The position numbers were made by a program, and so were the translations under genes. The notes under the pieces are model-generated. The model ran no database searches and was not told where the DNA came from. It saw only the letters and a list, made by a program, of their open reading frames with translations. Of a stretch of DNA of 43,808 bases, positions 1,869 to 31,476 are shown one piece after another; the stretch's first letter is position 1, and every line of letters begins with the position of its first letter. Source of the DNA: Candidatus Susulua stagnicola (GTDB lineage Bacteria > Omnitrophota > Gorgyraeia > Duberdicusellales > 4484-171); the NCBI GenBank assembly GCA_030765735.1, contig JAVCBZ010000051.1, forward strand, positions 1-43,808, written 5' to 3'.

Positions 1869-2999
1869 ATGCCTAAAATCTATATTAAGACATTCGGCTG
1901 TCAGATGAATAAGCGAGATTCAGAAGCTCTCCTGGGGCTATTTGTTGATAAAGGGTATACAATAGCTACTGATGCTAAGGAAGCTGACGTAGTCTTGGTT
2001 AATACTTGTTCTGTGCGTGCTCATGCTGAAGATCGAGCAAGGTCTTATTTAGGAAGCTTTAAGAAAAAGGGGACAGTCCCCATTCGGGGACAGTCCCCGA
2101 TTATTGGCCTTATTGGGTGTATGGCAAAAAATAAGGGAGAAGAGTTATACGAAAGAATGCCTCATATTGATTTAATTTGTGCTCCAGCTAACCTTTCTAA
2201 AATACCTGAGTATGTAGAAAGGATAAAGGAAGAAGGAGCAAGGATAAAGGATCTTGAGGATAAGGAAAGAGAAGAAGACTTTTACAAAGCCGCATTTCGA
2301 CAAGATTCTAGCCATGCTCAGGTAGTAATTTCAACTGGTTGTTCTAATTTTTGTTCTTATTGCGTTGTTCCTTTTGTTCGTGGTAGATTACGATTGCGCA
2401 AGCCTAAAGATATAATTAATGAGGTAAAACGAAACATTTCTTTAGGGATAAAGAATATTACTCTTTTAGGCCAAAATGTAAATGATTATAAATTTAGCTT
2501 AGAAAAAAATCAAGTGAGCTTTGTCGATTTGTTAAGAATGGTTGAAGAGACCAAAGGTCTAGAAAATTTGGATTTTATTACTGCTGGACCAAGAAATACT
2601 TCAAAAGAATTGTTTACATTTATAGCATCTTCTTCTAAAATAAAAAAGCATCTTCACTTGCCTTTTCAGTCTGGTTCTAATCGGATTTTAAAGTTAATGA
2701 AGAGAGGGTATACTAGGGAGAAGTATTTAAAACTTATAGATAGTTATAAAAAAATTGTTGGTAGTACTGTAAGCACAGATGTAATCGTTGGCTTTCCAAC
2801 TGAGAGCGATGATGATTTTAATCAAACTAAGGATATTTTAGAGAGGGTTAGATTTAGTCATGCTTTTATCTTTAAATATTCTCCACGAAGTGCAGCTAAG
2901 AGCTTTAATTTAGTTGATGATGTGCCAAAAGAAATAAAGATAAAACATCATAAGATATTATTGGATTTACAGAAGAAAATATCACTCGGAGCGTGTTAA
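1869..2999 (+). CDS. miaB: tRNA (i6A37) methylthiotransferase MiaB, apparently without the C-terminal TRAM domain
   Basis: MPKIYIKTFGCQMNKRDSE (UPF0004 domain) and the radical-SAM motif GCSNFCSYCVVP. At 376 aa it ends about where TRAM normally begins. Confidence 0.85.
   Translation: MPKIYIKTFGCQMNKRDSEALLGLFVDKGYTIATDAKEADVVLVNTCSVRAHAEDRARSYLGSFKKKGTVPIRGQSPIIGLIGCMAKNKGEELYERMPHIDLICAPANLSKIPEYVERIKEEGARIKDLEDKEREEDFYKAAFRQDSSHAQVVISTGCSNFCSYCVVPFVRGRLRLRKPKDIINEVKRNISLGIKNITLLGQNVNDYKFSLEKNQVSFVDLLRMVEETKGLENLDFITAGPRNTSKELFTFIASSSKIKKHLHLPFQSGSNRILKLMKRGYTREKYLKLIDSYKKIVGSTVSTDVIVGFPTESDDDFNQTKDILERVRFSHAFIFKYSPRSAAKSFNLVDDVPKEIKIKHHKILLDLQKKISLGAC
1875..1900 (+). repeat. Right copy of the 26-bp direct repeat (codons 3-11 of miaB)
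   Basis: Identical to 670-695. Confidence 0.9.
2069..2102 (+). repeat. Tandem 17-nt units, each containing the palindrome GGGGACAGTCCCC, inside miaB
   Basis: GGGGACAGTCCCCATTC (2069-2085) and GGGGACAGTCCCCGATT (2086-2102). They encode GTVPIRGQSPI. Confidence 0.85.
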
Positions 3000-3745
3000 T
3001 GAGTAGACGGGTAAATGGGTTGATCAGATTTTACATTTTTATATTTTTATTCTTTTTCTCATCAACGGCTTTTGCTTTGTCTATAACTGATGCCCATAAA
3101 GATTATCTTTATGGTAATTACGATGATGCAATAGCTAAAGCTTTAAAATTACCTGATAGTGATGAAGCCATTTACTTCTTAGGTTTATCTTATACGAAGA
3201 TTGCTAATTATTCTAAGGCTAGACCATTTTTTCGTAAGCTTATTAGACATTATCCAAAGTCTAAATTTTATGATTTAAGCATGGTTAAGTTGGCTGATAC
3301 TTATTTTTTTGAAAAAGATTATTCTCAGGCTAAAGCTCTTTATCTTGAAATGGAAGAAAGGGATCCTAATCGCAACACTATGCCTTTAGTTTTTTTAAGG
3401 CTTGCGCAAATGGCTAGTCGTCAAGGAGCTTGGAGTGAGAAAGAAAAATATCTACGCAAAATAAAAAATAAGTACCCTAAGTCTAGTGAGATGAAATTTG
3501 TTCAAGTGTTGGAAGATTTAGGAGATTTTTTTACCATACAAGTAGGGGCTTTTAGTGTTAAAGATAATGCTCTTTTGTTAATTGAAGAATTAAAAGATGA
3601 GTATTCTCCATATATTATTAAAGAAAAAAAAGGTAGTTATCTTCTTTATAAGGTACGTGTTGGTAAATTTAGGAAACGTTATGATGTTGAAAAAGCTTTT
3701 TCGAATTTACTTGATAAAGGGTATCCAGCCAAAATCTATCCTTAA
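2999..3745 (+). CDS. Secreted or membrane-anchored TPR-repeat protein with a C-terminal SPOR (peptidoglycan-binding) domain
   Basis: Hydrophobic N-terminus and TPR-like helices. The C-terminus FTIQVGAFSVKDNALLLIEELK...YKVRVGKFRKRYDVEKAFSNL fits the SPOR pattern. The ATG at 2999 overlaps the miaB stop (TAATG). Confidence 0.7.
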   Translation: MSRRVNGLIRFYIFIFLFFFSSTAFALSITDAHKDYLYGNYDDAIAKALKLPDSDEAIYFLGLSYTKIANYSKARPFFRKLIRHYPKSKFYDLSMVKLADTYFFEKDYSQAKALYLEMEERDPNRNTMPLVFLRLAQMASRQGAWSEKEKYLRKIKNKYPKSSEMKFVQVLEDLGDFFTIQVGAFSVKDNALLLIEELKDEYSPYIIKEKKGSYLLYKVRVGKFRKRYDVEKAFSNLLDKGYPAKIYP

Positions 3746-3750
3746 AGTGT

Positions 3751-4665
3751 ATGCCTAAAATTATTTTTATTGTTGGTCCCACTGCAACAGGAAAAACGGA
3801 AGTTAGTTTTTTATTAGCTAAAAAGCTTGGTGCTGAGATTGTTTCAGCTGATGCTATGGTTGTATACAAAGAGCCAAGTATTATAACTTCAAAACCCCAA
3901 GCTAAGATGCTAGAAGATGTAAAGCATCATTTTGTTGGTATGGTTTCGACTCAAGAAAGTTATAGTGTTTTTGATTATTCTTCTTTAGCTTCTAAAGTAA
4001 TAGAAGATTTAGCTAAAAAAAATATTTCAGTTATTGTATCCGGAGGTAGTGGTCTTTATTTAAAGGCAATTTTAGACGGTATATTTGAAGGTCCAGGTAA
4101 GGATGAAAATTTAAGAAAAGAATTAACTGAAATAGCCAAAACTAAAGGTAACCAATATTTATATCATAAATTGCAGAAGATTGACACAGAGAGTGCAAAA
4201 AAGATTTCTCTTAATGATCTAAGAAGAATAATTAGGGCCTTAGAGGTTCATTCATTATGCGGCCAAAAAATGTCTGAGAAGAAAAAAGAAGCCACTGGGC
4301 TTTGGGGTAAGTTGTCAATTGAGATTTTTGGCTTGCGGTTTAAACGCGATAATCTTTATCAACGGATAAACATCAGAGCTGATCAGATGTTTGAGCAAGG
4401 GGCTGTAGCTGAAGTAAAAGAGCTAATAAATACCAAGTTAAGTCTTACTGCTAAGAAAATACTTGGTATAATTGAGATAGAAGGCTTTTTGAAAGGAGAA
4501 TTAAGTCAGGAAGAATCTAAAGAGATGATGAAAAAGAATACTCGTAATTTTGCTAAGCGACAAGTTACTTGGTTTAAGAAAGATAAGCGTATCCAGTGGA
4601 TAGATGCAGATGAATTGAGTAGCGAGCAAATAGCAGATGAGATATTAAGGAGAAGTAATGACTAA
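3751..4665 (+). CDS. miaA: tRNA dimethylallyltransferase
   Basis: IFIVGPTATGKT P-loop, then SADAMVVYKE...ITSKP, with family-typical length. Confidence 0.9.
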   Translation: MPKIIFIVGPTATGKTEVSFLLAKKLGAEIVSADAMVVYKEPSIITSKPQAKMLEDVKHHFVGMVSTQESYSVFDYSSLASKVIEDLAKKNISVIVSGGSGLYLKAILDGIFEGPGKDENLRKELTEIAKTKGNQYLYHKLQKIDTESAKKISLNDLRRIIRALEVHSLCGQKMSEKKKEATGLWGKLSIEIFGLRFKRDNLYQRINIRADQMFEQGAVAEVKELINTKLSLTAKKILGIIEIEGFLKGELSQEESKEMMKKNTRNFAKRQVTWFKKDKRIQWIDADELSSEQIADEILRRSND

Positions 4666-5938
4666 AAACATGCATCAAACTGAAAAGCTAGAAAAAGCTT
4701 TATTGGTAGTCAGTAAGGCTGGTGATGAGGTGTGGACTCAGGAAGCTTTAGGGCAAGAACTTAAAAGTTTAGTAAGTTCAGCTGGAGTTGAAGTTTTGGA
4801 AGTGATTAGTTTTAATCTTGGTAAAATAAATCCGGCATTTTATATTGGTAAAGGTAAAGTTGAAGAGATTGCTGATAAGGTTAAAGAAATAGAGGCTAGT
4901 GTAGTTATTTTTAATAGTGATCTTCATTTTGCCCAGCAGCGTAATATAGAGGATGCTTTAGGTGTTAAGACAATTGATCGTACTCAGCTTATATTAGATA
5001 TATTCGCTGGGCATGCTCAAACCCAGGAAGGTATTTTGCAGGTTGAGCTGGCTCAATTAGAATATCTCCTGCCTCGACTTAGAGGCCAAGGCATAGCTTT
5101 ATCACGCTTAGGTGGGGGAATTGGTACTCGTGGTCCAGGTGAGAAGAAGCTAGAAGTTGATAAAAGAAGAATAACTGATCATATAGGATATTTAAAAAAA
5201 GATTTAAAATTAATAATTACTCATCGGGCAACGCAGCGTAAAAAAAGAAAAAAACAAGGAGTAAACACTTGTTCTTTGGTTGGTTATACTAATGCTGGTA
5301 AAACAACTCTTTTTAATACTTTGTCGGGAGATGATCAAAGAACTTCCTCAATCCTTTTTACTACTCTTGATACTGTAACTCGTATACTTGCTTTAAGCGG
5401 AAATTCAAAAATAGTTTTATCTGATACAGTAGGTTTTATTTATAAATTGCCTTTAAAATTGATTGATGCTTTTAAAGCTACTTTAGAAGAATTAAATTAT
5501 GCAGATGTCATTTTACACGTTATTGATTCTGGCAATAGTGATATAGAAAAAATAAAAAACTCAGTAGAAGATACTTTAAATAGTCTTAAGCTAAATGAAA
5601 AACCTACTATTGTGATTTTTAATAAGATTGATACAATACCTTATTATAGATTAGAGCAGTTAAAAGAAAAGTATCCAGAGAGCATTTTTGTTTCAGCGCT
5701 TAAATCTGAAGGTTTAGAAAGCTTAAAAGAAGAAATACATCGTTTAGTTTTTAAAGATATGGTTGAGGCGGCAGTAGACGTGCCGTTTGTACGTATGGAT
5801 ATTTCGTCTTTCCTTCACGATAAGTGTGAAGTTTTAGATATTGAATATTTGCAAGATAAAGTTATTTTTAAAATAAGGGCTAATGTAGATAGATTAGCTT
5901 ATATAAAGAAACAAGGGTTGGATGTTAGAGAGACATAA
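4658..5938 (+). CDS. hflX: GTPase HflX
   Basis: HflX N-domain (DRTQLILDIFAGHAQTQEGILQVELAQLEYLLPRL), G1 motif GYTNAGKTTLFN, DTVGF and NKID. AAGGAG RBS; overlaps the miaA end by 8 nt. Confidence 0.9.
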   Translation: MTKNMHQTEKLEKALLVVSKAGDEVWTQEALGQELKSLVSSAGVEVLEVISFNLGKINPAFYIGKGKVEEIADKVKEIEASVVIFNSDLHFAQQRNIEDALGVKTIDRTQLILDIFAGHAQTQEGILQVELAQLEYLLPRLRGQGIALSRLGGGIGTRGPGEKKLEVDKRRITDHIGYLKKDLKLIITHRATQRKKRKKQGVNTCSLVGYTNAGKTTLFNTLSGDDQRTSSILFTTLDTVTRILALSGNSKIVLSDTVGFIYKLPLKLIDAFKATLEELNYADVILHVIDSGNSDIEKIKNSVEDTLNSLKLNEKPTIVIFNKIDTIPYYRLEQLKEKYPESIFVSALKSEGLESLKEEIHRLVFKDMVEAAVDVPFVRMDISSFLHDKCEVLDIEYLQDKVIFKIRANVDRLAYIKKQGLDVRET

Positions 5939-5948
5939 TTAATTTGAC

Positions 5949-5975
5949 CTTAGGTTTTATAAAAACCTAAGTTTT
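5949..5975 (+). terminator. Rho-independent terminator after hflX
   Basis: CTTAGGTTTT-ATA-AAAACCTAAG (10-bp stem) followed by TTTT. Confidence 0.7.
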
Positions 5976-5989
5976 ACAAAGGGGGTAAA

Positions 5990-6340
5990 ATGAGAGTAGA
6001 TACATCGTTTAAGTATTTTAAAAAAAGTGATTTTATAAATAATGTTATCGAGAACAATCTTAAGAAAATAAAACGACGAATTCAAATATTTAGTCAAGAT
6101 GATCCAATCCATATATCGATTCATATTGAAAAAAATCCTCACAAAGATCAGTTTTTTTGCCGTTCACATCTTTACTTACCGACCTCAAAGGTGTTAGTGG
6201 CTGATGAGAAAGCTAAAGAAGCATCGCTATCAATAAACAAGGCTTTTTCAGCTCTTTCACGACAGTTGAGCAAGGAAAAGCATAAGAAACATAACCATCA
6301 CAGAAGGCCAAAGCAGAAGTTAGAGCCGGATTTTGAATAA
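5990..6340 (+). CDS. Ribosome hibernation factor, HPF/YfiA (RaiA) family, short form
   Basis: Its length and pattern (...IHISIHIEKNPHKDQFFCRSHLYLPTSKVLVADEKAKEASLSINKAFSALSRQLSKEKHK) parallel E. coli YfiA/HPF. Preceded by a GGGGG RBS. Confidence 0.65.
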   Translation: MRVDTSFKYFKKSDFINNVIENNLKKIKRRIQIFSQDDPIHISIHIEKNPHKDQFFCRSHLYLPTSKVLVADEKAKEASLSINKAFSALSRQLSKEKHKKHNHHRRPKQKLEPDFE

Positions 6341-6354
6341 AAAAATAATTTTGC

Positions 6355-6383
6355 TTGACGAGATGGTAGTGGCATGTTACCAT
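6355..6383 (+). promoter_or_regulatory. Putative sigma-70 type promoter of the hrcA operon (TTGACG-17-TACCAT)
   Basis: The -35 TTGACG is at 6355-6360 and a weak -10 at 6378-6383, immediately abutting CIRCE. Confidence 0.45.
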
Positions 6384-6385
6384 AG

Positions 6386-6412
6386 TTAGCACTCTAGGTC
6401 AAAGAGTGCTAA
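6386..6412. promoter_or_regulatory. CIRCE operator (HrcA binding site)
   Basis: Perfect consensus TTAGCACTC-N9-GAGTGCTAA, located 16 nt upstream of hrcA. Confidence 0.95.
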
Positions 6413-6427
6413 TAAGAAGGATTGACG

Positions 6428-7168
6428 ATGACTAGATCAGTAGATATTAAAAATAGGGAAAGAGAGATTTTAGGTTTGATTATTGATAGTTATATTGAAG
6501 AATCGAAGCCAATAAGCTCTGCCTATATTTGTCAAAAATATCATTTAGCTTGTTCAACAGCCACAATAAGAAATATTATGGTTTTGCTTGAGAAGCAAGG
6601 TTTTCTTTCTCATTTATATACTTCTTCAGGAAGAGTTCCTACTCAAGAAGGTTTTAGGTGTTATGTTGAAAACTGTGATAGACAAAATGATTCTCAAGAA
6701 TATTCAATAAGTTTAGATTCTTATGCTTCGTCTCAACCAAGTATAGAAGATGTTATCAGTCATACCTTAGATGCTTTAGTGCAACTTAGTGGCTATACTT
6801 CCTTGATGGCTGTTTCTGGTAGAGACGAGAAGATTTTTTTTCGAGGTATGAGATTCATGCTAGAGCAGCCAGAATTTGAAGATGTTAGAAGACTTAAAGA
6901 TATTTTTTATACTTTGGAAGTAAAAATGGGAGCATTGCAGAATTTGTTTTTTGATTCTATTGATGATGGAATTAGAATATTAATTGGTGATGATATTGGC
7001 TTTGAAGAAATTGCTGATTGTTCGTTAGTTATATCTGGACTTAGAGATAAGGACCTCTCATTTGCTTTTGCACTTCTTGGTCCAATGAGAATGAATTATA
7101 ACAAAGCGACATCATCTTTGCAGTCAGTAAGAAATAGGCTTAAAGAAACAGTTGAAGAGTTTATATAG
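6428..7168 (+). CDS. hrcA: Heat-inducible transcription repressor HrcA (short, ~246 aa)
   Basis: N-terminal wHTH (REREILGLIIDSYIEESKPISSAYICQKY...TIRNIMVLLEKQGFL...SSGRVPT). Sits in an hrcA-grpE-dnaK-dnaJ context with CIRCE. The ATG at 6428 has a better RBS than the TTG at 6422. Confidence 0.85.
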   Translation: MTRSVDIKNREREILGLIIDSYIEESKPISSAYICQKYHLACSTATIRNIMVLLEKQGFLSHLYTSSGRVPTQEGFRCYVENCDRQNDSQEYSISLDSYASSQPSIEDVISHTLDALVQLSGYTSLMAVSGRDEKIFFRGMRFMLEQPEFEDVRRLKDIFYTLEVKMGALQNLFFDSIDDGIRILIGDDIGFEEIADCSLVISGLRDKDLSFAFALLGPMRMNYNKATSSLQSVRNRLKETVEEFI

Positions 7169-18323: not shown

Positions 18324-19289
18324 ATGGATAGTATTGTTAATAAAATAAGAGAAATAGCTAAAAGTAACTCTAAAGTAATTGTTTTTCCTGAAGCTGATGA
18401 TGAAAGAGTCCTTGAAGCTGTAGAACGAATAAAAGAAGAAGGAATTGCCAAGCCTTTATTGCTTACTCAAGATAATCTTGATCCGGAAAAGCAAGAGGAA
18501 TTTGCCAATCTTTTTTTTGAGCGCAAACAAGTCAAAGGAGTTACTTTTGAAGAAGCTCGAGAATTAATGGAAAATCCGCTTTATTATGCGGCAATGATGG
18601 CTCGTTATGGTTATGCTGATGGTTTTGTTGCTGGAGCAAAATACACTACTTCTTCAGTGGTGCGAGCAGCGCTTAATTGCTTGCAGCTAGATAAAGAAGT
18701 AAGGATTGTTTCAAGTTGTTTTATCATGGCAGTTCCTGATTGTGTTTATGGAGAAAAAGGGGTTTTCGTTTATGCTGATTGTGGAGTAATACCTTATCCA
18801 ACAAGTGAACAGCTTGCAAATATTGCAATTTCTAGTGCACGTTTTGCTAGAGATGTTTTGGAGATTACGCCTCGGGTTGCTCTTCTGAGTTTTTCTACTA
18901 AAGGGAGTGCTGAAGGAAGATGGGTTGATAAGATAAAAGAAGCTGTTGAAATTGCTAATGCAAAGAATAATGATTTTTTAATTGATGGAGAATTACAAGG
19001 GGATAGCGCTTTGGTGCCGGAAATTGCTTCTAGGAAATTAGGCGAAAGTAAAGTTGCAGGTCAGGCAAATGTTCTGATTTTTCCAAATTTAGATGCCGGT
19101 AATATTTGCTATAAATTAACTCAACGTCTTGCTAAAGCTAGGGCTATTGGCCCGATAATTATAGGTACAAAACAGCCATGTAGTGATTTATCTCGAGGTT
19201 GCGATGTGGAAGATATCATAGATTGTACAGCGGTATGTGTAATTAGAGCCCAGAAGCGGGAAAAAGCTGAGGCCAACAACAGCCTATGA
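18324..19289 (+). CDS. pta: Phosphate acetyltransferase (PTA_PTB domain only)
   Basis: VFPEADDERVLEA... and SDLSRGCDVEDI; ~320 aa. ATGA overlap with ackA. Confidence 0.9.
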   Translation: MDSIVNKIREIAKSNSKVIVFPEADDERVLEAVERIKEEGIAKPLLLTQDNLDPEKQEEFANLFFERKQVKGVTFEEARELMENPLYYAAMMARYGYADGFVAGAKYTTSSVVRAALNCLQLDKEVRIVSSCFIMAVPDCVYGEKGVFVYADCGVIPYPTSEQLANIAISSARFARDVLEITPRVALLSFSTKGSAEGRWVDKIKEAVEIANAKNNDFLIDGELQGDSALVPEIASRKLGESKVAGQANVLIFPNLDAGNICYKLTQRLAKARAIGPIIIGTKQPCSDLSRGCDVEDIIDCTAVCVIRAQKREKAEANNSL

Positions 19290-20374
19290 AAATTTTGATT
19301 GTCAATTGTGGCAGTTCCTCGATAAAGTATAAACTTTATGATTTTCCTTCAAATTCTCTTCTTGTTAAAGGTGTTATTGAGAGAATTGGCGAAACAAAAT
19401 CTCAAGTTCAAAATCATCACCAAGGAATAAAAGTTCTAGTAGAGGATATCCTCAATAAAGGGGTGGTCACTAATTTAAATGAAATCTCTGCTATTGGTCA
19501 CAGGGTTGTCCATGGAGGGGAAACTTTTACTCAACCGCATTTAATTGATGCCAAAGTAATAAAAAAGATAGAAGAATGTGCACAATTGGCTCCTTTACAC
19601 AATCCAGTAAATTTGGCTGGAATTATCGGTTGTCGAAAACTTTTTCCTCGTATACCACAAGTAGCTGTGTTTGACACTGCTTTTCATCAGACTATTCCTG
19701 AATATGCCTTTATGTATCCTTTACCAATTGAATATTATAAAAAATATAAAATACGAAAGTATGGTTTTCATGGCACTTCTCATCAATTTATTGCCACAGA
19801 AGCTGCTAAGATTTTGAAAAAGCCTTTAAACAAATTACGTTTAATCACCTGTCACTTGGGGAATGGATGTAGTGTCGCTGCTATTGATAAAGGCAAATCT
19901 ATAGATACTTCAATGGGATTCACTCCTCTTGAAGGTTTAATGATGGGCACACGTTCTGGTGATGTTGATATTGCGGCAATTTTTTATCTTATGAAAAAAG
20001 AAAATTTTTCAGTTTCTGAGATGGATAATATCTTAAATAAAAAAAGTGGAATTTTAGGAATTTTTGGTTCAAGTAATGATTTTCGTGCTTTGAAAAAAGC
20101 TGCAAAAGCCGGAAATTCTAGAGCTAAGCTAGCTTATGAGATGTTTATCTATAGGCTTAAGAAGTATATAGGTGCTTATTACTTTATTTTAGGGCGACCC
20201 GATGCAATATGCATTACTGGTGGCATTGGTGAACATTCAAATCAAATTGATAGTATTACAAAAAAGGATATTTTAAAAATTGGTGATAAAAAAACTAAAG
20301 TTTTAGTTATCCCAACTGATGAAGAATTGATGATTGCTAATTTAACTTACGAATTATTAAAAAAAAAGGGGTGA
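19286..20374 (+). CDS. ackA: Acetate kinase (compact, 362 aa)
   Basis: ILIVNCGSSSIKYKLY, GHRVVHGG, LAPLHNP, FDTAFH, YGFHGTSH, GTRSGD and IPTDEELMIA are all present. It is about 40 aa shorter than the paralog at 27181. Confidence 0.9.
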   Translation: MKILIVNCGSSSIKYKLYDFPSNSLLVKGVIERIGETKSQVQNHHQGIKVLVEDILNKGVVTNLNEISAIGHRVVHGGETFTQPHLIDAKVIKKIEECAQLAPLHNPVNLAGIIGCRKLFPRIPQVAVFDTAFHQTIPEYAFMYPLPIEYYKKYKIRKYGFHGTSHQFIATEAAKILKKPLNKLRLITCHLGNGCSVAAIDKGKSIDTSMGFTPLEGLMMGTRSGDVDIAAIFYLMKKENFSVSEMDNILNKKSGILGIFGSSNDFRALKKAAKAGNSRAKLAYEMFIYRLKKYIGAYYFILGRPDAICITGGIGEHSNQIDSITKKDILKIGDKKTKVLVIPTDEELMIANLTYELLKKKG

Positions 20375-24556: not shown

Positions 24557-24579
24557 AAAGGGGTCAACTCCCTTTTTTT
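24557..24579 (+). terminator. Hairpin AAAGGGGTCAACTCCCTTT plus T7 (copy 2 of the repeated hairpin element)
   Basis: Identical 19-mer to 1768-1786. Followed by TTTTTTT, downstream of the MBL hydrolase gene. Confidence 0.7.
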
Positions 24580-24594
24580 CTCCGCAATCTAATG

Positions 24595-24660
24595 GCGGTT
24601 TAGGATTCGCCTAAACCGCTCTTCCCGGTTAGGCCTCGGTGTAGGCGAATCCTAAACCGG
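24595..24660. repeat. GC-rich nested palindrome doublet (REPIN-like)
   Basis: Hairpin A is GCGGTTTAGG-ATTCG-CCTAAACCGC (24595-24619). A second, inverted partial copy, TAGGCGAATCCTAAACCGG, sits at 24642-24660. Segment 24597-24611 is the exact reverse complement of 24644-24658 (15 bp), so alternative folds are possible. Confidence 0.8.
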
Positions 24661-24786
24661 GTTGTCAGGCTAAGAACTGGCAGAGGGTTAGCGGTAGGTA
24701 GAGATAAATTCATAAAACAATTAGTAAATAAGCTAAAAAGGCTTTTTAAAATGCTTAAACAAGAGTGGTCGAGGAAGGGGGCTTAA

Positions 24787-24805
24787 AAAGGGAGTTGACC
24801 CCTTT
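24787..24805 (-). repeat. Copy 3 of the 19-nt hairpin element, inverted orientation
   Basis: AAAGGGAGTTGACCCCTTT is the exact reverse complement of the 19-mer at 24557-24575. Confidence 0.9.
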
Positions 24806-24851: not shown

Positions 24852-24898
24852 AAAAGGGACATTTCTAAATGTGCAAAAAAGGGACATTTTTAAATGTG
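24852..24898. promoter_or_regulatory. Two tandem 22-nt units, each with a 14-bp palindrome (operator-like)
   Basis: AAAAGGGACATTTCTAAATGTG (24852-24873) and AAAAGGGACATTTTTAAATGTG (24877-24898). The period is 25 nt. ACATTT-NN-AAATGT is palindromic, and the array ends at a TTGACA (24900-24905). Confidence 0.55.
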
Positions 24899-24981: not shown

Positions 24982-25009
24982 TTGACATCTTCGGGTTTAT
25001 AGATACAAT
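24982..25009 (+). promoter_or_regulatory. Near-consensus sigma-70 promoter of tRNA-Glu (TTGACA-16-TACAAT)
   Basis: The -35 is at 24982-24987 and the -10 at 25004-25009. The tRNA starts at 25020. Confidence 0.65.
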
Positions 25010-25019
25010 TATAAAACAT

Positions 25020-25097
25020 GGCCCCATCGTCTAGCACGGTCTAGGACATATGGTTCTCAGCCATAAGACACCGGTTCAAATCCGGTTGGGGCTACCA
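25020..25097 (+). tRNA. tRNA-Glu (anticodon CUC), with encoded CCA
   Basis: Hand-folded cloverleaf. The acceptor stem is GGCCCCA/TGGGGCT (G1-U72) and the D-arm is GTCTAG..AGGAC. The anticodon stem TATGG/CCATA carries the loop TTCTCAG. A 4-nt variable loop is followed by the T-arm ACCGG-TTCAAAT-CCGGT, discriminator A and CCA. It closely parallels E. coli tRNA-Glu. Confidence 0.9.
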
Positions 25098-25294
25098 ATA
25101 ATTTAAAGAGAGGATAGATACAGTTCTGATTGGTTTAGTTGGCTATAGCCTTATCGTTGTTGTTATGTTTTAAAGATCCTGGTATTACTTTCCAATAATG
25201 CTATTAATCTTACAGTTTTTCCTTTGGTACGTAGATTTCTATGGAAACTCTTGTTAAGCCTTGATTAATATTTTATTAATTTATTAATTAATAC

Positions 25295-25323
25295 TTGACA
25301 TGACAGATTCTATGATGTATACT
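25295..25323 (+). promoter_or_regulatory. Promoter of the XRE-cupin module (TTGACA-17-TATACT)
   Basis: Hexamers at 25295-25300 and 25318-25323. Preceded by an ATTAAT-rich stretch (25264-25293) and followed by a GGAGG RBS. Confidence 0.6.
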
Positions 25324-25343
25324 TTCTTTGGAGGTTAGAAAAG

Positions 25344-25895
25344 ATGAAAATAGTTGGTGTGAATATAAAACGATTAAGGGATGAACAAGTCCTAACACTT
25401 AGAACCTTAGCTAAAAAAGTGGGTATTAGCGCAAGCTTCTTGTCACAAGTTGAGAGCGGTAAAGCTTCCCCATCTTTATCGACATTAAAAAGCATTTCTG
25501 ATGCCCTCGCTACGACTGTTGGTGATCTTATAGGGGAAGGCCAGAAAATTGATAATAATCCTGTAGTAAAATTAAGTGAAAGAAAACATGTGAAGGGAAT
25601 AGGCAAGGGGATCAACATGTATTTATTGACATCACGAGATCCGAATAAACAGATGGAACCTTTACTCTTTAAATTGAAAAAGGGTGTTACATCGGGGGTG
25701 GCGTCTTATAAGCATTTTGGACAAGAGTTTGTGATGGTTTTAAGAGGATCTATGGAGATTACTCTTAATAGTGTAGTTTACATATTAAAGAAGGGCGACA
25801 GTATATACTTTAATTCAAGTGTACCGCATGCTTTTAGAAATATAGGTAAAGAAGAGGCAGAAGCTATCTGGGTTATAACACCGCCGACCTTTTAG
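25344..25895 (+). CDS. XRE-family HTH plus cupin-domain transcriptional regulator
   Basis: The N-terminus IKRLRDEQVLTLRTLAKKVGISASFLSQVESGKASPSLSTL is an XRE HTH. The C-terminal cupin is FVMVLRGSMEI...GDSIYFNSSVPHAFRN. The architecture resembles PuuR/SutR-type regulators. Confidence 0.85.
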   Translation: MKIVGVNIKRLRDEQVLTLRTLAKKVGISASFLSQVESGKASPSLSTLKSISDALATTVGDLIGEGQKIDNNPVVKLSERKHVKGIGKGINMYLLTSRDPNKQMEPLLFKLKKGVTSGVASYKHFGQEFVMVLRGSMEITLNSVVYILKKGDSIYFNSSVPHAFRNIGKEEAEAIWVITPPTF

Positions 25896-25970
25896 AAGAC
25901 AAAATTTTTTTGAAAAAAGTGTTAACTATTAGTTAATAATGTTAATGAATATAAAACAAAATGGAGGTGT

Positions 25971-27191
25971 ATGATGAAAAAATTAATCAAAGCAAAAGCT
26001 AAAGGTCTTAGAAAGTCGCTAGAAAAATTTGCTATAAAGATAGAAAGTTTTAAGCTTAGTTCCTCAAACATGGGTGAGTTTACGGATTTGATTTTAACCG
26101 AAATGAGAGATTTGGGGTTTGACAAAGTTACTAAAGATAAGGCTGGTAACCTAATCGGAGTGATAAAAGGATATGGGAGTAAGGATGCCATCGTTATATT
26201 GTCTCACATTGATATCAAGACACCTGAGCAACAAAAGGCAGAAGATGTTAGTAATAGTGGAATGACAAAATTTAGGTCTGGTATTATTTCAAGTATTTAC
26301 GCAGGTGCTTTAATGAAAAGGACTATGTTGCCGATGACAGGTGATTTAATAATTAGCTGTGTGCCTAGGCTTGGATGTTGTGATTTTGGTACCAAATATC
26401 TTTTTAATGATGTTTTGAAAAATAGAGTCAAAAAGATTAAAGGTGTAATACTTTGTGAACCTACTGATTTTAATATTAATCTAGGGCATAAAGGTATGAT
26501 GGAATATGAAATAGTGGTTAAAGGTAAGCTGAATAGGAATTTTCTAGAGAATCGCGGGATGAACATGCTTGGTACGATGTTTCCTTTAATAAGTGAATTA
26601 GAGAAGGTGTCAAAAGAATTACCAAATGATTTTAATTTAGGACGTTCTAGTTTGAGAATCAAAGATGTGAGTTATAGTGGATGCCAACCTCAAGATGAGA
26701 TAAACGAATTTAGGATAGTTGTTGATAGGGCGTTTATACCTGAAGAAACTAAAGGTTATATTTTAAATAGAGCCAAGGCAATAGCAAAGACTGTATATAA
26801 ACAAGAACAAGGTATTACTGTGAATACTCTTTTAGCTAAAGAGCGAATCAAAACTTATACAGGGCTTGATTTGGTGCTTGAAAAAGAGTTTAAGCCTTGG
26901 TCTATGGAAAGTCATCAGCCTTTTGCTTTAGAATCGCTTGAGAGTTTGAACGAAAATGGATTCAAATCGAATTTTGGCTATTGGAAAAAAGTGGTAACTG
27001 AAGGTTCTTACACATATGCGCAATTGAAAATACCTACAATAGGATTTGGCGCAGGAGTTGAAGATAACATAGATTCAAGCATCGACTCTTTAAACTTAGA
27101 TAAGATTGAGAAGGCTTCTTATGGTCAAGCATTGATTGTTCAGAGGAACATAGGTATGCCTACTTTTGGCTGGAGCTCTGATGAAATCTAA
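25971..27191 (+). CDS. M20-family (YgeY/ArgE/DapE-like) peptidase homolog with an apparently eroded metal site
   Basis: M20 landmarks are present: GNLIGVIKG...IVILSHIDI, CEPTDFNINLGHKGMMEYEIVVKG, and IPTIGFGAG near the C-terminus. By-eye alignment lacks the bridging Asp, the DEE/EE motif (RLGCCDFG instead) and the C-terminal His. Confidence 0.65.
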   Translation: MMKKLIKAKAKGLRKSLEKFAIKIESFKLSSSNMGEFTDLILTEMRDLGFDKVTKDKAGNLIGVIKGYGSKDAIVILSHIDIKTPEQQKAEDVSNSGMTKFRSGIISSIYAGALMKRTMLPMTGDLIISCVPRLGCCDFGTKYLFNDVLKNRVKKIKGVILCEPTDFNINLGHKGMMEYEIVVKGKLNRNFLENRGMNMLGTMFPLISELEKVSKELPNDFNLGRSSLRIKDVSYSGCQPQDEINEFRIVVDRAFIPEETKGYILNRAKAIAKTVYKQEQGITVNTLLAKERIKTYTGLDLVLEKEFKPWSMESHQPFALESLESLNENGFKSNFGYWKKVVTEGSYTYAQLKIPTIGFGAGVEDNIDSSIDSLNLDKIEKASYGQALIVQRNIGMPTFGWSSDEI

Positions 27192-28416
27192 GGAAAAAAA
27201 GTCCAATATACTTGTGATTAATTGTGGAAGTTCATCCTTAAAGTATAAAATAATAAGGATGCCGGATGAAGATGAAATAGTCCGGGGAGAGGCTGAAAGG
27301 GTGGGAATCAAAACACAAGGTGTTTCTATCATTACACATACAGTCCTTGGTAAAAAGAGGACGATTAAGGTTTTGCTTCCTAATCATTCGATAGCGCTTA
27401 AGAAGGTGCTTGAGTTAATAGCGAATGACGAAAAAGAAAATAAAGATATAAGATTTGATACTTTTGCTCATCGGTATGTTCATCCAGGCAAGTTTTTTAC
27501 GAAAACTACTAAAATTAATAAAATGGTTTTAACAAAATTGAAGGAGACTTTGCCGCTTGCTCCTATCCATAATCCGATATCTTATAAATTATTAGAATTT
27601 TGCCATCGAGAAAAATCTTCTATAGACCAATTTGTTGTATTTGATACGGCATTCCATAAAACTATTTTGCCTGAATATTCGACCTATGTGTTGCCTCTTA
27701 AAGTTATTAAGAAATATGGAATACGGAAGATAGGTTTTCATGGTATATCACATCAGTATGCAATGGAAGAGGCTTGTAAGTTTTTTAATAGAGATAAAAT
27801 CACACAAAAGATAATAAGTTGTCATTTGGGCACTGGCGGTTCAAGTGTTTGTGCAATCAGGAGTGGGAGATCTATAAATAATTCAATGGGTTTTACGCCG
27901 CTTGAAGGATTGATGATGAATACTCGCTCAGGTGACATAGATCCTGGAGCTATATTTTACATAATGTTTAGAGAGTGTTTTTCTCCAGAAGAAGCTGAAA
28001 ATATTTTAAATAATAAAAGTGGTATTCTTGGAGTATTTAATTCTTCATCTGACTTAAGAGATGTCATTAAAGACATAGACAATAACAAACAAGCGAAAAT
28101 GACATTTGATATGTATGTACGTAGAGTTAGGGCGTACATAAGTTTTTATTCCTTGATACTGAAAAAATCAGATATTTTAATATTTACAGATTCGCTTGGA
28201 GTAGGGTCATCTGTATTAAGAGAAAGCATTTGTGAAAATATGGAATTTTTAGGGCCGAACTTAGACAAGGAAAAAAATACTAAATACAGTGAGGGTATAA
28301 GTGAGATTTCTTTATCTGGATCTGAAACGAAAATTCTTGTGATTCCCACAGATGAAGAGATTATGATTGCTAGAGAAGCTTATCAAAGGTTGGTAAAAGA
28401 TGATCTTAGTCATTGA
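27181..28416 (+). CDS. Acetate/propionate kinase family paralog (full length)
   Basis: ILVINCGSSSLKYKII, AHRYVHPG, LAPIHNP, FDTAFH, IGFHGISHQ, NTRSGDIDPG, IPTDEEIMIA. The ATG at 27181 overlaps the M20 gene end by 11 nt. Confidence 0.85.
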   Translation: MKSKEKKSNILVINCGSSSLKYKIIRMPDEDEIVRGEAERVGIKTQGVSIITHTVLGKKRTIKVLLPNHSIALKKVLELIANDEKENKDIRFDTFAHRYVHPGKFFTKTTKINKMVLTKLKETLPLAPIHNPISYKLLEFCHREKSSIDQFVVFDTAFHKTILPEYSTYVLPLKVIKKYGIRKIGFHGISHQYAMEEACKFFNRDKITQKIISCHLGTGGSSVCAIRSGRSINNSMGFTPLEGLMMNTRSGDIDPGAIFYIMFRECFSPEEAENILNNKSGILGVFNSSSDLRDVIKDIDNNKQAKMTFDMYVRRVRAYISFYSLILKKSDILIFTDSLGVGSSVLRESICENMEFLGPNLDKEKNTKYSEGISEISLSGSETKILVIPTDEEIMIAREAYQRLVKDDLSH

Positions 28417-29503
28417 TTATAATTTAAAAGATATAAAAGTGTCAACTTTTGAAGAGAAATTTGATGGGCAGATTTTATCTAGTGATATTAAAGCTATTGA
28501 TGAAATAAAAGATGATGATCTATTTAAGAAAATTATTCAAAATATTAATGGTAAGAAGAAAATCAAGGCTATTTCATTTAGAATCTTATTTGGAGGAGAT
28601 TATTTTGATAAGCCAACGCTTGTTGATGAAAAGTTTTTTTTACACTTTGAGAAATTAACAGATTTTTTTCCTTTTTATGTGCCATTAACATCAAGGATGC
28701 TAAAAAGATTCCAAAAAATATTCAAAGACATTCCCTTGATAGCTTTTTTCGAAACATCATTTTTTTTGAAATTGCCGGATAAAGAAAAATATTACACTTT
28801 ACCGTTTGAGTATTACCAGAACAATAGAATAAAGAGATGGGGGTTTCATGGGATATTTCATCAAGCAAATACTAGGATTTTTTCTAAAGGTGATAGAAAT
28901 CTATCTATAGTATTTGATAAACAAACTACAGTATGTGCAACTCGTAACAATAAACCTCTTTCTGTAAGTTTAGGATATACGCCTTTGGGCGGTATTATGT
29001 CTAGAACGAGTTGCGGAGATTTGGATCCTGGGATAGTGCTCTATCTTATGAATGTACATAAGCTCTCGATTTATGAGATCGATGAAATGTTGAAGAACAA
29101 AAGTGGATTTGTAGGGCTCTCGGGATATGATATCTCAATAAGTGAAATGTTAAAGCTATACGGCAAAGATGCTAAAGTTGATATGGCATTTGACATTTAT
29201 CAGTCTCAGATAATGAAGTATGTAGGTGAAGGGATAGCAGCATTGGGAGGTTTAGATAATATTATTTTTGCTGGGAGCAATGTGGGAATATTTACTCCAA
29301 TAATTCATCAAATCGTGAGAAAGATATTATTTTTAGGAATAAACACCATAAGTTTGCCATGGTCTGAAGATAAAACTATAATCGATATTACATCTGCTGA
29401 GTCTAGGATAAAGGTATATATTAGCAGAATGGATATTGCTAAAGTTATCTTTCACGAGAGTGATATCTTTTGTAAAAATTCTAGTAATTTAAGAATAATT
29501 TAA
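28400..29503 (+). CDS. Degenerate acetate-kinase-fold protein (probable pseudo-kinase or divergent ASKHA member)
   Basis: It retains WGFHGIFHQ, LGYTPLGGIMSRTSCGDLDPG and KNKSGFVGLSG. The N-terminal phosphate motif is lost (VIDYNLKDIKV instead of VxNxGSSSxK). LAPxHNP has become FPFYVPL, and PTDEE has become SRMDIA. Overlaps the upstream gene by 17 nt. Confidence 0.7.
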   Translation: MILVIDYNLKDIKVSTFEEKFDGQILSSDIKAIDEIKDDDLFKKIIQNINGKKKIKAISFRILFGGDYFDKPTLVDEKFFLHFEKLTDFFPFYVPLTSRMLKRFQKIFKDIPLIAFFETSFFLKLPDKEKYYTLPFEYYQNNRIKRWGFHGIFHQANTRIFSKGDRNLSIVFDKQTTVCATRNNKPLSVSLGYTPLGGIMSRTSCGDLDPGIVLYLMNVHKLSIYEIDEMLKNKSGFVGLSGYDISISEMLKLYGKDAKVDMAFDIYQSQIMKYVGEGIAALGGLDNIIFAGSNVGIFTPIIHQIVRKILFLGINTISLPWSEDKTIIDITSAESRIKVYISRMDIAKVIFHESDIFCKNSSNLRII

Positions 29504-29705: not shown

Positions 29706-30182
29706 GTGAGACATTCATTAAAAGTTGGATTTAGTTTTGGTATTACCTCAGGAATAATAACAACTTTAGGATTAATGGTAGGGTTAAATTCCAGCACTAA
29801 TTCAAAGATTGCAGTTATTGGTGGTATATTAATAATTGCTATAGCTGATGCTTTTTCTGATGCCTTAGGAATACATATTTCTGAAGAGTTTGAAAATCAT
29901 CACACAACAAAACAGGTTTGGACTTCAACTATAGCAACTTTTTTTGCAAAATTTATTTTTTCATTAACTTTTATTATTCCAATTTTAATTTTTGAACTTT
30001 CAACTGCTATTATTGCTAGTATAATCTGGGGATTTTCAGTATTGGCCATACTAAGTTATCAAATGGCAAAAGAACAAAATGCTAGTCCATGGAAGGTAAT
30101 TGGTGAGCATCTTGCAATTGCAACAGTGGTTGTGTTTGCAACTCATCATCTTGGGAATTGGATTTTAGCAAATTTTAATTAA
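29706..30182 (+). CDS. Small integral membrane protein, VIT1/CCC1-like (DUF125-type) membrane domain
   Basis: Its 5 TM segments follow the pattern GFSFGITSGIITTLGLMVGL...IAIADAFSDALGIHISEE, which resembles the VIT-family membrane domain. GTG start. Confidence 0.45.
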   Translation: MRHSLKVGFSFGITSGIITTLGLMVGLNSSTNSKIAVIGGILIIAIADAFSDALGIHISEEFENHHTTKQVWTSTIATFFAKFIFSLTFIIPILIFELSTAIIASIIWGFSVLAILSYQMAKEQNASPWKVIGEHLAIATVVVFATHHLGNWILANFN

Positions 30183-30304: not shown

Positions 30305-31060
30305 ATGTTAGCTAAACGAATAATACCATGCTTAGATATTAATAAGGGAAGAGTAGTCAAGGGGGTTAATTTCATTAACCTTCAAGATGCGGGTGATCCA
30401 ATTAAAAATGCTAAATTTTATGAGGATCAAGGCGCAGATGAGTTGGTTTTTTTAGATATTACTGCTAGTGTAGAAAAACGAGCTACGACTATTGAGTTAG
30501 TTAAAAAGATTTCTCAGGTTGTTTTTATGCCTTTTACTGTTGGAGGTGGAATAAAATCAGTTTTGGATATACGTAGACTTCTTTTGGCTGGAGCAGAAAA
30601 AGTTTCACTAAACACTGCTGCTGTTAAAAATCCTCAATTAATTAAGGAAGCTTCGGATATTTTTGGTAGTCAGTGTATAGTTGTTGCCATTGATGCAAAA
30701 TCAAAGGGAAAGGGTTGGGAAGTATATATCAATGGTGGTAGAACAGCAACAGGCATAGATGTTTTAAAATGGGCTCAAAAAGTCCAAAAATTAGGTGCTG
30801 GTGAGATTCTTCTTACTAGCATGGATTATGATGGCACTAAAGATGGTTTTGATATAAAATTAGTGCGGGCAATATCTGATCTGGTTGAGATACCAGTGAT
30901 TGCTTCTGGAGGAGCAGGTAAACTTAAAGATTTTTTTGATGTTTTTAAGGAAACCAAAGCTACTGCAGGGTTGGCAGCTTCGATATTTCATTATCGTCAG
31001 ATTAGCATTAAAAATATAAAAGGATATCTTAGAAAAAAAGGAATAAAGGTGAGGATATGA
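30305..31060 (+). CDS. hisF: Imidazole glycerol phosphate synthase cyclase subunit
   Basis: [23 protein letters not shown]...[10 protein letters not shown]...GGGI...SGGAG, matching HisF over its full length. Confidence 0.95.
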
Positions 31061-31148
31061 AGGATAAAGGAACAAGGATGAAGGATAAAGGAGCAAGGAT
31101 AAAGGATAAAGAGAAAAAGATAAAGATAAAGATAAAGATAAAGATAAA
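31057..31148 (+). repeat. Purine-rich in-frame repeat array: 21-nt unit x2 (plus a degenerate third), then (GATAAA)x5
   Basis: ATGAAGGATAAAGGAACAAGG (31057-31077) and ATGAAGGATAAAGGAGCAAGG (31078-31098), then GATAAA x5 at 31119-31148. Confidence 0.9.
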
Positions 31149-31476
31149 GGGAAAAGCAGTGATAATTCCGAAGTTAAAATTTGGGCAAGATGGACTTATT
31201 CCAGCAATTGTTCAAGATGATAAAACTGGAGATGTTTTAATGATTGCCTATATGAATAAGGAATCGCTAGAAATTACTTTGCGTGAGATGAGAACTTGTT
31301 TTTGGTCTCGTTCTCGAAAGACTCTTTGGCGTAAGGGTGAAACCAGTGGTCATGTTCAAAAGATAAAGAAAATATATTATGATTGCGATAAGGATGCTTT
31401 GTTAGTAAGGGTAGATCAAAAAGGCGTTGCTTGTCATACTGGTGAGTGGAGCTGTTTTTTCCGAAGACTGATTTAA
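31057..31476 (+). CDS. hisI: Phosphoribosyl-AMP cyclohydrolase (HisI only). The true start may be the GTG at 31159, downstream of the repeat array
   Basis: [10 protein letters not shown]...[12 protein letters not shown]...FWSRSR..LW.KGETSGH...DCD.DALL..V...G.ACHTGE.SCF. The Lys-rich 34-aa N-terminal extension has no counterpart in typical HisI. Confidence 0.85.

Follow-up and report, generated by a model that had tools for sequence, protein, structure and literature searches.

What do a protein of the M20 fold and two proteins of the acetate kinase fold do together in one bacterial operon? The question is raised by a four-gene locus of Candidatus Susulua stagnicola (Omnitrophota), found in a stretch of 43,808 nt of contig JAVCBZ010000051.1 (positions 1 to 43,808, hereafter the window). 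The four genes, here called the cassette, are all on the forward strand, with the lengths and coordinates given in the initial annotation. REG (25344-25895, 183 aa) encodes an XRE-HTH and cupin transcription regulator (HTH_3 48.5 bits, Cupin_2 63.9 bits). It is followed by the gene for an M20-fold, YgeY-related protein that appears to be a pseudo-metallohydrolase without a di-metal centre (M20-like, 25971-27191, 406 aa; start at 25974 and 405 aa in the database gene call), by ACK (27181-28416, 411 aa), an acetate-kinase-family enzyme with an intact catalytic set, and by PSK (28400-29503, 367 aa), a conserved pseudokinase paralog with the AckA fold. Our tentative answer is that the locus could be a repressor-controlled, self-contained operon whose product is a machine of three proteins, only one of them with an intact catalytic centre: a heteromeric acetate/acetyl-phosphate phosphotransferase of the Entamoeba type.

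The four proteins were mapped by tblastn onto contigs encoding homologs and in a scan of one genome per GTDB species. The order REG, M20-like, ACK, PSK was kept in about 40 species-level genomes and was found at every related locus with enough upstream DNA except one (L041), and this recurrence of the four genes is far beyond chance. The carriers represent seven or more phylum-level lineages, i.e. Omnitrophota (including some metagenome-assembled genomes (MAGs) labelled Planctomycetia), Elusimicrobiota/Endomicrobiales, Fibrobacterota, Raymondbacteria, Firestonebacteria, Marinamargulisbacteria and Bacteroidales, the last including Geofilum sp. OHC36d9, whose record bears no MAG label. The databases held 377 homologs of PSK, mostly from Omnitrophota MAGs. 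At L041, a 5'-truncated PSK relic (5944-6711; residues 128-355, 59% identity) stands alone, with neither REG, M20 nor ACK upstream, which indicates loss of the cassette in one lineage; at another locus (L031) the ACK gene is frameshifted and split over two frames.

The genes are also joined in a recurrent manner. M20-like and ACK overlap by 11 nt (27181-27191), and ACK and PSK by 17 nt (28400-28416), with a Shine-Dalgarno-like element inside the upstream gene at both overlaps. The same overlaps were found in 27 of 39 and 23 of 39 loci, respectively, which agrees with the translational coupling that the initial annotation had read from them. All-against-all clustering of the flanking open reading frames (ORFs) gave no fifth conserved gene at the cassette loci and no linked phosphotransacylase, transporter or CoA enzyme, so that the absence of these enzymes noted for the window extends to the related loci. 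The flanks differed at every cassette locus, and even the closest relative (75-84% identity) had no flanking gene in common with the window. No Rosetta-stone fusions were found among the 150 best representatives. The cassette is therefore a conserved autonomous unit. The four genes had initially been described as one tight functional unit, with a lack of synteny elsewhere named as what would count against this, and the synteny across phyla proved to be strict.

ACK scored 365 bits against PF00871 and 373.6 bits against TIGR00016, above the cutoff of 293.4, and its public annotation is 'acetate/propionate family kinase'. An alignment was made of 47 cassette ACK sequences, 49 PSK sequences, 20 canonical AckA sequences from the genome scan, the housekeeping AckA of the window and AckA of Methanosarcina thermophila. 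In the last sequence, 16 literature-numbered residues fell at the right positions, and the 1G99 alignment was in agreement with it. In M. thermophila numbering, N7, S10-12, K14, R91, H123, D148, H180, H208, R241, R285 and E384 were invariant in ACK (45-47 of 47 rows, with the gaps due to one truncated and one ambiguous row), and E385 was kept too, as was the acyl pocket formed by V93, I/L122, F179 and P232. The acetate/acetyl-phosphate active site of ACK is thus complete, and its acyl pocket is small and hydrophobic.

The residues that changed in ACK in a family-specific manner were V92Y, G95P, N211T/S, G239N, residue 330 to Asp, G331S/T and those at 334/335. The PHOSPHATE2 loop was one residue longer, HLG[TS]GG[SA]S, in 47/47 ACK and 0/22 canonical AckA, and the ADENOSINE motif read D[ST][LI]G.. 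in ACK. Asp330 together with a residue other than Gly at 331 was found in all 47 ACK; canonical AckA had only Gly or Ala at 330. The motifs of canonical ATP-dependent AckA, i.e. a standard-length HxGNGxS and (A/G)G(I/V)GEN with Gly331, were thus absent from ACK. An extended PHOSPHATE2 loop with a second Gly, combined with an Asp beside the position of the invariant Gly331, was previously reported to be unique to the Entamoeba Pi/PPi kinases and a few bacterial candidates (PMC5517563). The phosphoryl-donor site of ACK appears to be remodelled as in the Pi/PPi-dependent acetate kinase of Entamoeba histolytica (EhACK; PDB 4H0O; EC 2.7.2.12), the single Pi/PPi-dependent acetate kinase characterised, for which both the donor determinants and the partner that supplies acetyl phosphate are still open (PMC5517563, PMC9983610). 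EhACK belongs to the AckA family as well and has the complete acetate/acetyl-phosphate catalytic set. The two proteins aligned without a gap at 'CHLGTGGSS', where they are identical, so that the window ACK carries the same elongated 'HLGTGGSS' loop, and FTD at the ADENOSINE motif is common to both. They also share the Asp before the Gly331 position, a residue other than Gly at 331, an aromatic residue at 92 and Ser/Asn at 239.

Neighbour-joining trees were built with residues 13-398 of EhACK, rebuilt from the 4H0O alignment. ACK, the ACK of a sister system described below and EhACK were monophyletic in 98 of 100 bootstraps with respect to the 22 canonical AckA. ACK and PSK were each monophyletic in 100 of 100, with 39% and 26% identity to canonical AckA, respectively, and a phylogeny of the kinases, as the initial annotation had proposed, thus placed both outside ordinary AckA. 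The ATP-coupled step suggested there is doubtful, as the donor site of ACK has the hallmarks of the PPi/Pi-dependent Entamoeba enzyme (PMC5517563).

PSK scored 168 bits against PF00871 and 163.5 bits against TIGR00016, below the cutoff of 293.4, and was about 25-26% identical to both ACK and canonical AckA. The AlphaFold2 model of PSK had a predicted local distance difference test score (pLDDT) of 84 and a predicted template modelling score (pTM) of 0.84, and its top Foldseek matches were acetate kinases (TM 0.71-0.78). The catalytic residues were largely replaced. PSK had lost N7/GSSS (PHOSPHATE1), the ADENOSINE motif and, by H123Y, D148E (47/49), H208V, G210D, N211K, G212Q, R241S and E384L, most of the remaining set, and in PHOSPHATE2 HLGNGxS had become V-F/L-D-K-Q-T-T. 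Residue 241 is Ser in the family alignment, with a shifted and non-conserved Arg close by. R91 (41/49), F179, H180 and P232 were kept. From these replacements PSK is predicted to be unable to bind or transfer phosphate. PSK is no gene in decay but a strongly conserved pseudokinase, and an ancient one, because its inactive state is common to the sister system. An active and an inactive paralog, both conserved, are thus encoded side by side.

This arrangement is found in the 'prozyme' systems, trypanosomatid AdoMetDC and deoxyhypusine synthase, in which an active enzyme and a dead paralog are both under selection and presumably form a heteromer, and in which there is precedent for a dead paralog that activates its catalytic partner (PMC5201418, PMC3663545). 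Those systems belong to other protein families and another domain of life, and an activating heteromer is a proposal in the case of PSK.

To place M20-like, the PDB was searched by sequence, which gave nothing with the single sequence and only a weak DapE match with a profile, and a fold search was therefore needed. The AlphaFold2 model (pLDDT 85, pTM 0.86) showed a two-domain M20 fold, and the top Foldseek matches were DapE, PahZ2, 5-nitroanthranilate aminohydrolase, CPG2 and LysK, with E values of 1e-22 to 1e-17 and 13-16% identity. No match to PF01546 was obtained at E <= 0.01, only a weak one to M20_dimer. The best curated model was the NCBIfam YgeY model NF009555 (151.7 bits, cutoff 321), and E. 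coli YgeY aligned over the full length with 25% identity and an E value of 3e-26. The metal site was compared in 41 sequences in YgeY numbering. The bridging Asp114 was present in 2/41, the general-base Glu148 was replaced by Arg in 41/41, and the metal ligands Glu149 and C-terminal His374 were found in 0/41. Glu174 of the EPT motif was the only invariant residue of the site, His81 was present in 35/41, and the lid Arg (R253 in the window protein) was kept in 41/41. The mean column identity of the family was 62%. M20-like is predicted to have no di-metal site and is under strong constraint rather than decaying. Both PSK and M20-like are full length, with 36-83% identity across phyla and family-specific invariant residues. 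The words 'eroded' and 'degenerate' used in the initial annotation hold for the lost motifs of PSK and the lost metal centre of M20-like, but neither protein is in decay.

The initial annotation had named YgeY as the relative of M20-like and had foreseen that an intact metal centre would argue for a simple duplicated set; the relationship was borne out and the ligands were gone. In the reductive uric-acid pathway YgeY serves as the albizziin ureidohydrolase, and Co2+ was supplied in its assay (PMC12507026). E. coli YgeY, encoded in the ygeW-ygeX-ygeY-hyuA-yqeA cluster, has in common with M20-like the best-scoring curated family, the full-length two-domain fold and a C-terminal tail with Trp and acidic residues, whereas M20-like is a distant, sub-cutoff relative that lacks the di-metal site and the general base. 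Neither ygeW, ygeX, hyuA nor genes for a carbamate kinase or a selenium/molybdenum hydroxylase (xdh-type) were found in the window flanks or at about 50 related loci. The proposed analogy to the ygeW-ygeY-yqeA cluster thus stands for the ancestry of the M20 protein but not for the pathway, as no carbamoyltransferase or carbamate kinase is present.

The C-terminal FGWSSDEI of M20-like was invariant and had a low pLDDT in the monomer model. The idea that this is a cassette-specific carrier or substrate tail was rejected, as it is common to the sister M20 and is found in a weaker form in E. coli YgeY (PLSWLATE). It was kept only as a possible docking motif, because it is not cassette-specific and its codons also encode the ribosome-binding site and start of ACK. 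Positions 27168-27191 are dual-coding, with the codons of the tail residues W-S-S-D-E-I (TGG AGC TCT GAT GAA ATC) holding both the GGAG ribosome-binding site and the ATG of ACK.

An exhaustive profile search with the M20-like family, followed by a metagenome scan, led to a sister system. The profile search gave a group of M20 proteins with the full set of metal ligands and yet with an FGW[ST]SDEI tail. At their loci a divergent gene for a sigma-54 enhancer-binding protein (with a V4R/XylR_N or PAS sensor) is followed by M20, an ACK-type kinase and a PSK-type pseudokinase. The metagenome scan gave 80 loci with one gene order (L090-L170; also L089 6213-11501), and all-against-all clustering of flanking ORFs gave no other conserved gene at the sister loci. 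By NCBI names, the carriers were Auribacterota, Verrucomicrobiota, Lentisphaerota/Victivallaceae and 'Chlamydiota' MAGs. The metal ligands of the sister M20 were intact in 81/81, except Glu148 (80/81) and Glu149 (71/81), and the protein passed PF01546 with 83 bits; it is probably a true hydrolase. Elements resembling -24/-12 promoters preceded the sister M20 in 48/71 loci, compared to 5% of control windows. The sister ACK had the extended PHOSPHATE2 loop in 59/59 and Asp330/Thr331 in 60/60, with mainly Thr, Lys or Glu at position 335, and the dead state of the sister PSK is the one found in the cassette PSK. The two versions thus share the three-gene order, the EhACK-like kinase signature, the pseudokinase state and the M20 tail, but in the sister system the M20 protein is metal-intact, a sigma-54 activator and -24/-12 elements take the place of REG and its promoters, and the genes mostly do not overlap. 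Since the sister system shares both kinase signatures and keeps the metals, the triad and its pseudokinase are ancient, and only the XRE-cupin lineage has lost the metal site of M20. No curated family in NCBIfam, Pfam or PADLOC names either version.

REG was 51-84% identical across phyla and was usually the best-conserved protein of the cassette, with H124, E128 and H162 of the cupin conserved. Its promoter, of the sigma-70 type, reads TTGACA-17-TATACT (25295-25323, forward strand) and matches the consensus at 11 of 12 positions, in agreement with the strong promoter that had been assigned to the unit; the -35 element, the spacing and the -10 element were kept in nearly all orthologous loci. 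A distal operator box, GTTAAGCCTTGATTAA, of the form GTTAA-N6-RTTAA, lies upstream of this promoter (25253-25268, forward strand). A proximal box, TTATTAATTAATACTTGACA (25281-25300, forward strand), overlaps the -35 element and reads TTGTTAAnTAATACTTGACA in the orthologs. A box was found at the position of the distal operator in about 35 orthologous loci from several phyla, and the region of the proximal box was near-invariant in the aligned DNA upstream of REG (GTTAA-TAATA-CTTGACA). Across phyla, the upstream pattern was TGTTAAG-N5-RTTAA ... TTGTTAAnTAATACTTGACA-N17-TATACT ... GGAGG.

A second promoter/operator region is situated in the spacer between REG and M20-like (25919-25957, forward strand), with GTTAA(C/T) boxes at 25921, 25932 and 25941 and a TATAAA element resembling a -10 at 25950. 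In about 35 loci these spacers (65-80 bp) contained a T-run, TGTTAAC-TAATA-GTTAAT-nn-TGTTAAC-TAATATAAAAC and GGAGG. At both promoters the boxes, with a phasing of 11 bp, overlap the -35 region. GTTAA-N6-RTTAA had two matches only in the whole window of 43.8 kb, at 25253 and 25921, which are the two promoters of the cassette. From this pattern we infer that REG, until released by a ligand, represses both its own promoter and an internal one for M20-like, ACK and PSK, and the proximal box would then be the site of autorepression. The best curated match of REG was the PuuR model NF007408, with a score (78.3 bits) below the cutoff (211), so that REG does not qualify as a PuuR equivalog. It has the domain architecture of the XRE-HTH/cupin repressors of the PuuR type, and the logic is probably the same too, with a ligand-released repressor on repeated boxes at its own and a target promoter. 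The GTTAAC-type boxes at 11-bp phasing are, in contrast, specific to the cassette.

These results suggested a model in which a heterodimer of ACK and PSK replaces the homodimer that is usual for AckA, with PSK as a partner of the 'prozyme' type. M20-like, free of metal, would bind a small ligand resembling a carboxylate or an amino acid, or would dock through its FGWSSDEI tail, and would thus serve as a non-hydrolytic accessory or gating subunit. The complex may interconvert acetate and acetyl phosphate with a donor/acceptor other than canonical ATP/ADP, most likely Pi/PPi (acetyl-P + Pi <-> acetate + PPi). REG would repress both promoters until its cupin domain binds a small-molecule inducer. 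The ancestral form would have been a real M20 amidohydrolase coupled to a kinase pair of the ACK/PSK type, a form that may survive as the sigma-54 sister system.

Several observations weigh against this model of an Entamoeba-type heteromer. The grouping with EhACK came from neighbour-joining as the sole tree method, so long-branch attraction is possible. The overall identity to EhACK is about 37%, and the Gln323-Met324 pair that occludes the pocket in EhACK is replaced by Ser/Thr-Leu/Ile in ACK (positions 331-332), so that ATP or another nucleoside triphosphate may still bind. The four Anaerolineae candidates of PMC5517563 also differ from Gln-Met at 331-332 (Asp), and the same study stated that donor choice is not set by occlusion of the pocket alone and that bacterial enzymes of this kind could be 'neither ATP- nor PPi-dependent'. 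Position N335 was Gly in 31, Glu in 11 and another residue in 5 of the 47 ACK, and Glu, suggested by other authors to be the key residue here, is thus found in a minority. EhACK was crystallised as two identical chains and has no known pseudokinase or M20 partner, and the source of its acetyl phosphate is debated (PMC9983610). No PPi-using enzyme is consistently linked to the cassette, a gene for an H+-pyrophosphatase adjoining it at one locus (L002). That ACK, PSK and M20-like form a complex is itself something that we infer, and the role given to M20-like is the weakest step of the model. As the sister M20 is probably a true hydrolase, a role in processing a substrate is suggested over a purely accessory one.

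The gene at L002 encodes a membrane H+-pyrophosphatase and lies directly upstream of the cassette (2682-4796) in one Omnitrophota-type genome. Given the PPi-type signature of the kinase this adjacency is suggestive, yet it comes from a single locus.

In the alternative put forward in the initial annotation, the genes would serve a catabolic pathway: a small N-acyl or N-carbamoyl molecule would be cleaved by the M20 protein, the short-chain acid or acyl phosphate set free would be taken over by an ATP-linked kinase of the AckA type, and PSK would be a structural partner; the outcome would be substrate-level phosphorylation or activation of an acid. M20-like is related to YgeY, a real ureidohydrolase that acts on albizziin (PMC12507026), and the metal ligands kept by the sister M20 make a coupling of hydrolysis to the kinase pair plausible ancestrally. 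The acyl pocket of ACK fits acetate or propionate, and a ligand-sensing regulator is typical of catabolic operons. However, the hydrolytic centre of the window type is gone in 41/41, there is no linked transporter or downstream enzyme, and the donor site of ACK is non-canonical. Furthermore, ATP gain by phosphorolysis of an ordinary amide is thermodynamically unfavourable. We consider this pathway unlikely, and the ATP-linked model suits the sister system better than the window version.

Two further schemes give the M20 fold an active part, and each seems improbable. In the first, the M20-ACK-PSK triad would be an energy-conserving module for substrate-level synthesis of PPi: the M20-fold subunit would produce or deliver an acyl phosphate, in the window version (free of metal, with Arg for the general base) by phosphorolysis instead of hydrolysis, and an Entamoeba-type kinase enabled by PSK would turn this acyl phosphate into pyrophosphate. 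If this were true, the cassette would reveal the bacterial context, and possibly the source, of the PPi-acetate kinase of Entamoeba, and the type of partner that researchers have looked for in the case of that kinase would be identified. In the second, the operon would serve a biosynthetic, CoA-independent acylation, in which ACK makes an acyl phosphate, M20-like N-acylates an amine in the former peptidase pocket and PSK holds or channels the acyl phosphate. The invariant Arg of M20-like at the former general-base position, next to a retained lid Arg, would fit such a reaction, as would a PSK that keeps R91, H180 and the hydrophobic pocket without phosphate or nucleotide motifs, and amide formation from an acyl phosphate is thermodynamically favourable. 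Acylation is, however, hard to reconcile with the normal hydrolase centre of the sister M20, genes related to a product are not linked, and the genome already has pta for acetyl-CoA. An M20 fold that acts as an acyl-phosphate transferase would also be without precedent, as we know of none.

A tRNA-linked mobile island that carries the cassette, or a role of the cassette in anti-phage defence with REG as an XRE-type control protein, is very improbable. The distribution across phyla is patchy with unrelated flanks, the HTH of REG matches control-protein and HTH models in PADLOC, and in the window the cassette starts about 200 bp downstream of tRNA-Glu(CTC) (25020-25097). However, the PADLOC matches of REG are generic and limited to its HTH, and M20-like, ACK and PSK had no PADLOC match; a cupin-type regulator is moreover typical of metabolite sensing. 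The window neighbours (an MBL-fold hydrolase, an NYN protein, a VIT1 protein and HisF) include no integrase-like gene, and no repeat of the tRNA 3' end was found in the window, as had been noted before. The GC content was 0.29-0.35 across the window, and a comparison with the flanking DNA, as suggested in the initial annotation, showed flat composition and skew with no shift at the cassette; no plasmid copies of the cassette were found. With no other copy beside a tRNA, no shared flank and no second tRNA 3' end, the position next to tRNA-Glu is incidental, and nothing points to a genomic island. That the genes are a duplicated housekeeping set, with ACK redundant and PSK and M20-like as decaying duplicates, is scarcely credible, for although ACK passes the generic ackA model with its acetate/propionate family annotation and there is occasional decay (the PSK relic in L041, the frameshifted ACK in L031), PSK and M20-like are full length and well conserved across phyla and both fold confidently in AlphaFold2, PSK was a pseudokinase before the two systems diverged, and gene order and overlaps are fixed. 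Decay, island and defence are thus effectively excluded as explanations of the cassette.

A true housekeeping pair is present in the window, as initially annotated, and consists of pta (18324-19289, TIGR00651 338 bits) and AckA (19286-20374). This AckA is the compact one (362 aa), compared to the full-length copy of 411 aa in the cassette, and has all catalytic and ATP motifs (HLGNGCS, GGIGEH, IPTDEE), but the part that leads from the ADENOSINE motif to the C-terminal IPTDEE segment is short of about 35-40 residues. Similarly short AckAs adjoin pta at other Omnitrophota loci (L057, L061, L063).

The initial annotation had stated that no described pathway pairs an M20 protein with two proteins of the acetate kinase fold, and none was found in the literature either. 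A literature search on the gene combination, on acetate-kinase pseudokinases and on acetate kinase in Omnitrophota gave no description. In the curated libraries and the searchable literature, no description was found of the obligatory triad, the pseudokinase, the split into metal-intact and metal-less M20, the two regulatory versions or the operator. The component families had been established before, and attention was drawn to the kinase class in 2017, on sequence evidence only; the function of the operon is undescribed. Kinases with both Entamoeba hallmarks are thus widespread in uncultured anaerobic bacteria and are always accompanied by genes for a dead paralog and for an M20 protein resembling YgeY. 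With their different regulators, the M20 versions with and without the metal site are a natural experiment on the role and donor specificity of the kinase class, and the open questions on PPi-type acetate kinases, i.e. the donor determinants, the partner enzyme and the distribution in bacteria (PMC5517563, PMC9983610), become testable. The cassette is also a clean bacterial case of one enzyme kept with two pseudoenzymes. About 500 database proteins are misleadingly annotated as 'acetate kinase', 'hypothetical protein' or 'M20 metallo-hydrolase'.

Some other features of the window were observed. A search of Rfam with the intergenic region near the tRNA gave the tRNA as the sole match. The tRNA-Glu promoter reads TTGACA-16-TACAAT (24982-25009), and just upstream of it there are two tandem 22-nt direct repeats, AAAAGGGACATTT[C/T]TAAATGTG (24852-24898). 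A 19-mer hairpin, AAAGGGGTCAACTCCCTTT, was found in three copies (1768-1786, 24557-24575 and 24787-24805), compared to an expectation of 0. Two inverted copies, with perfect 21-nt arms when extended, flank a segment of 207 nt (24557-24805), which is relatively GC-rich and contains a 23-nt inverted repeat (24596-24659). The element at 24557-24805 had no match in Rfam and could be a repeated terminator, or an element resembling a miniature inverted-repeat transposable element or a structured RNA. Downstream of the cassette, a short VIT1-family (iron/manganese transporter-like) membrane protein is encoded at 29706-30182 with its own promoter-like sites, and it is not kept beside the cassette elsewhere. 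The ORF for HisI (PRA-CH) at 31057-31476 has a Lys-rich, repetitive N-terminal extension, with the catalytic domain starting at about residue 62; the extension may be a mis-called start or a low-complexity leader. Nearly all ORFs of at least 100 aa in the window (1-43808) are on the forward strand, and the GC skew was positive in every 1-kb bin, so that the cumulative skew climbs monotonically. This pattern indicates a strong strand bias within a single replichore.

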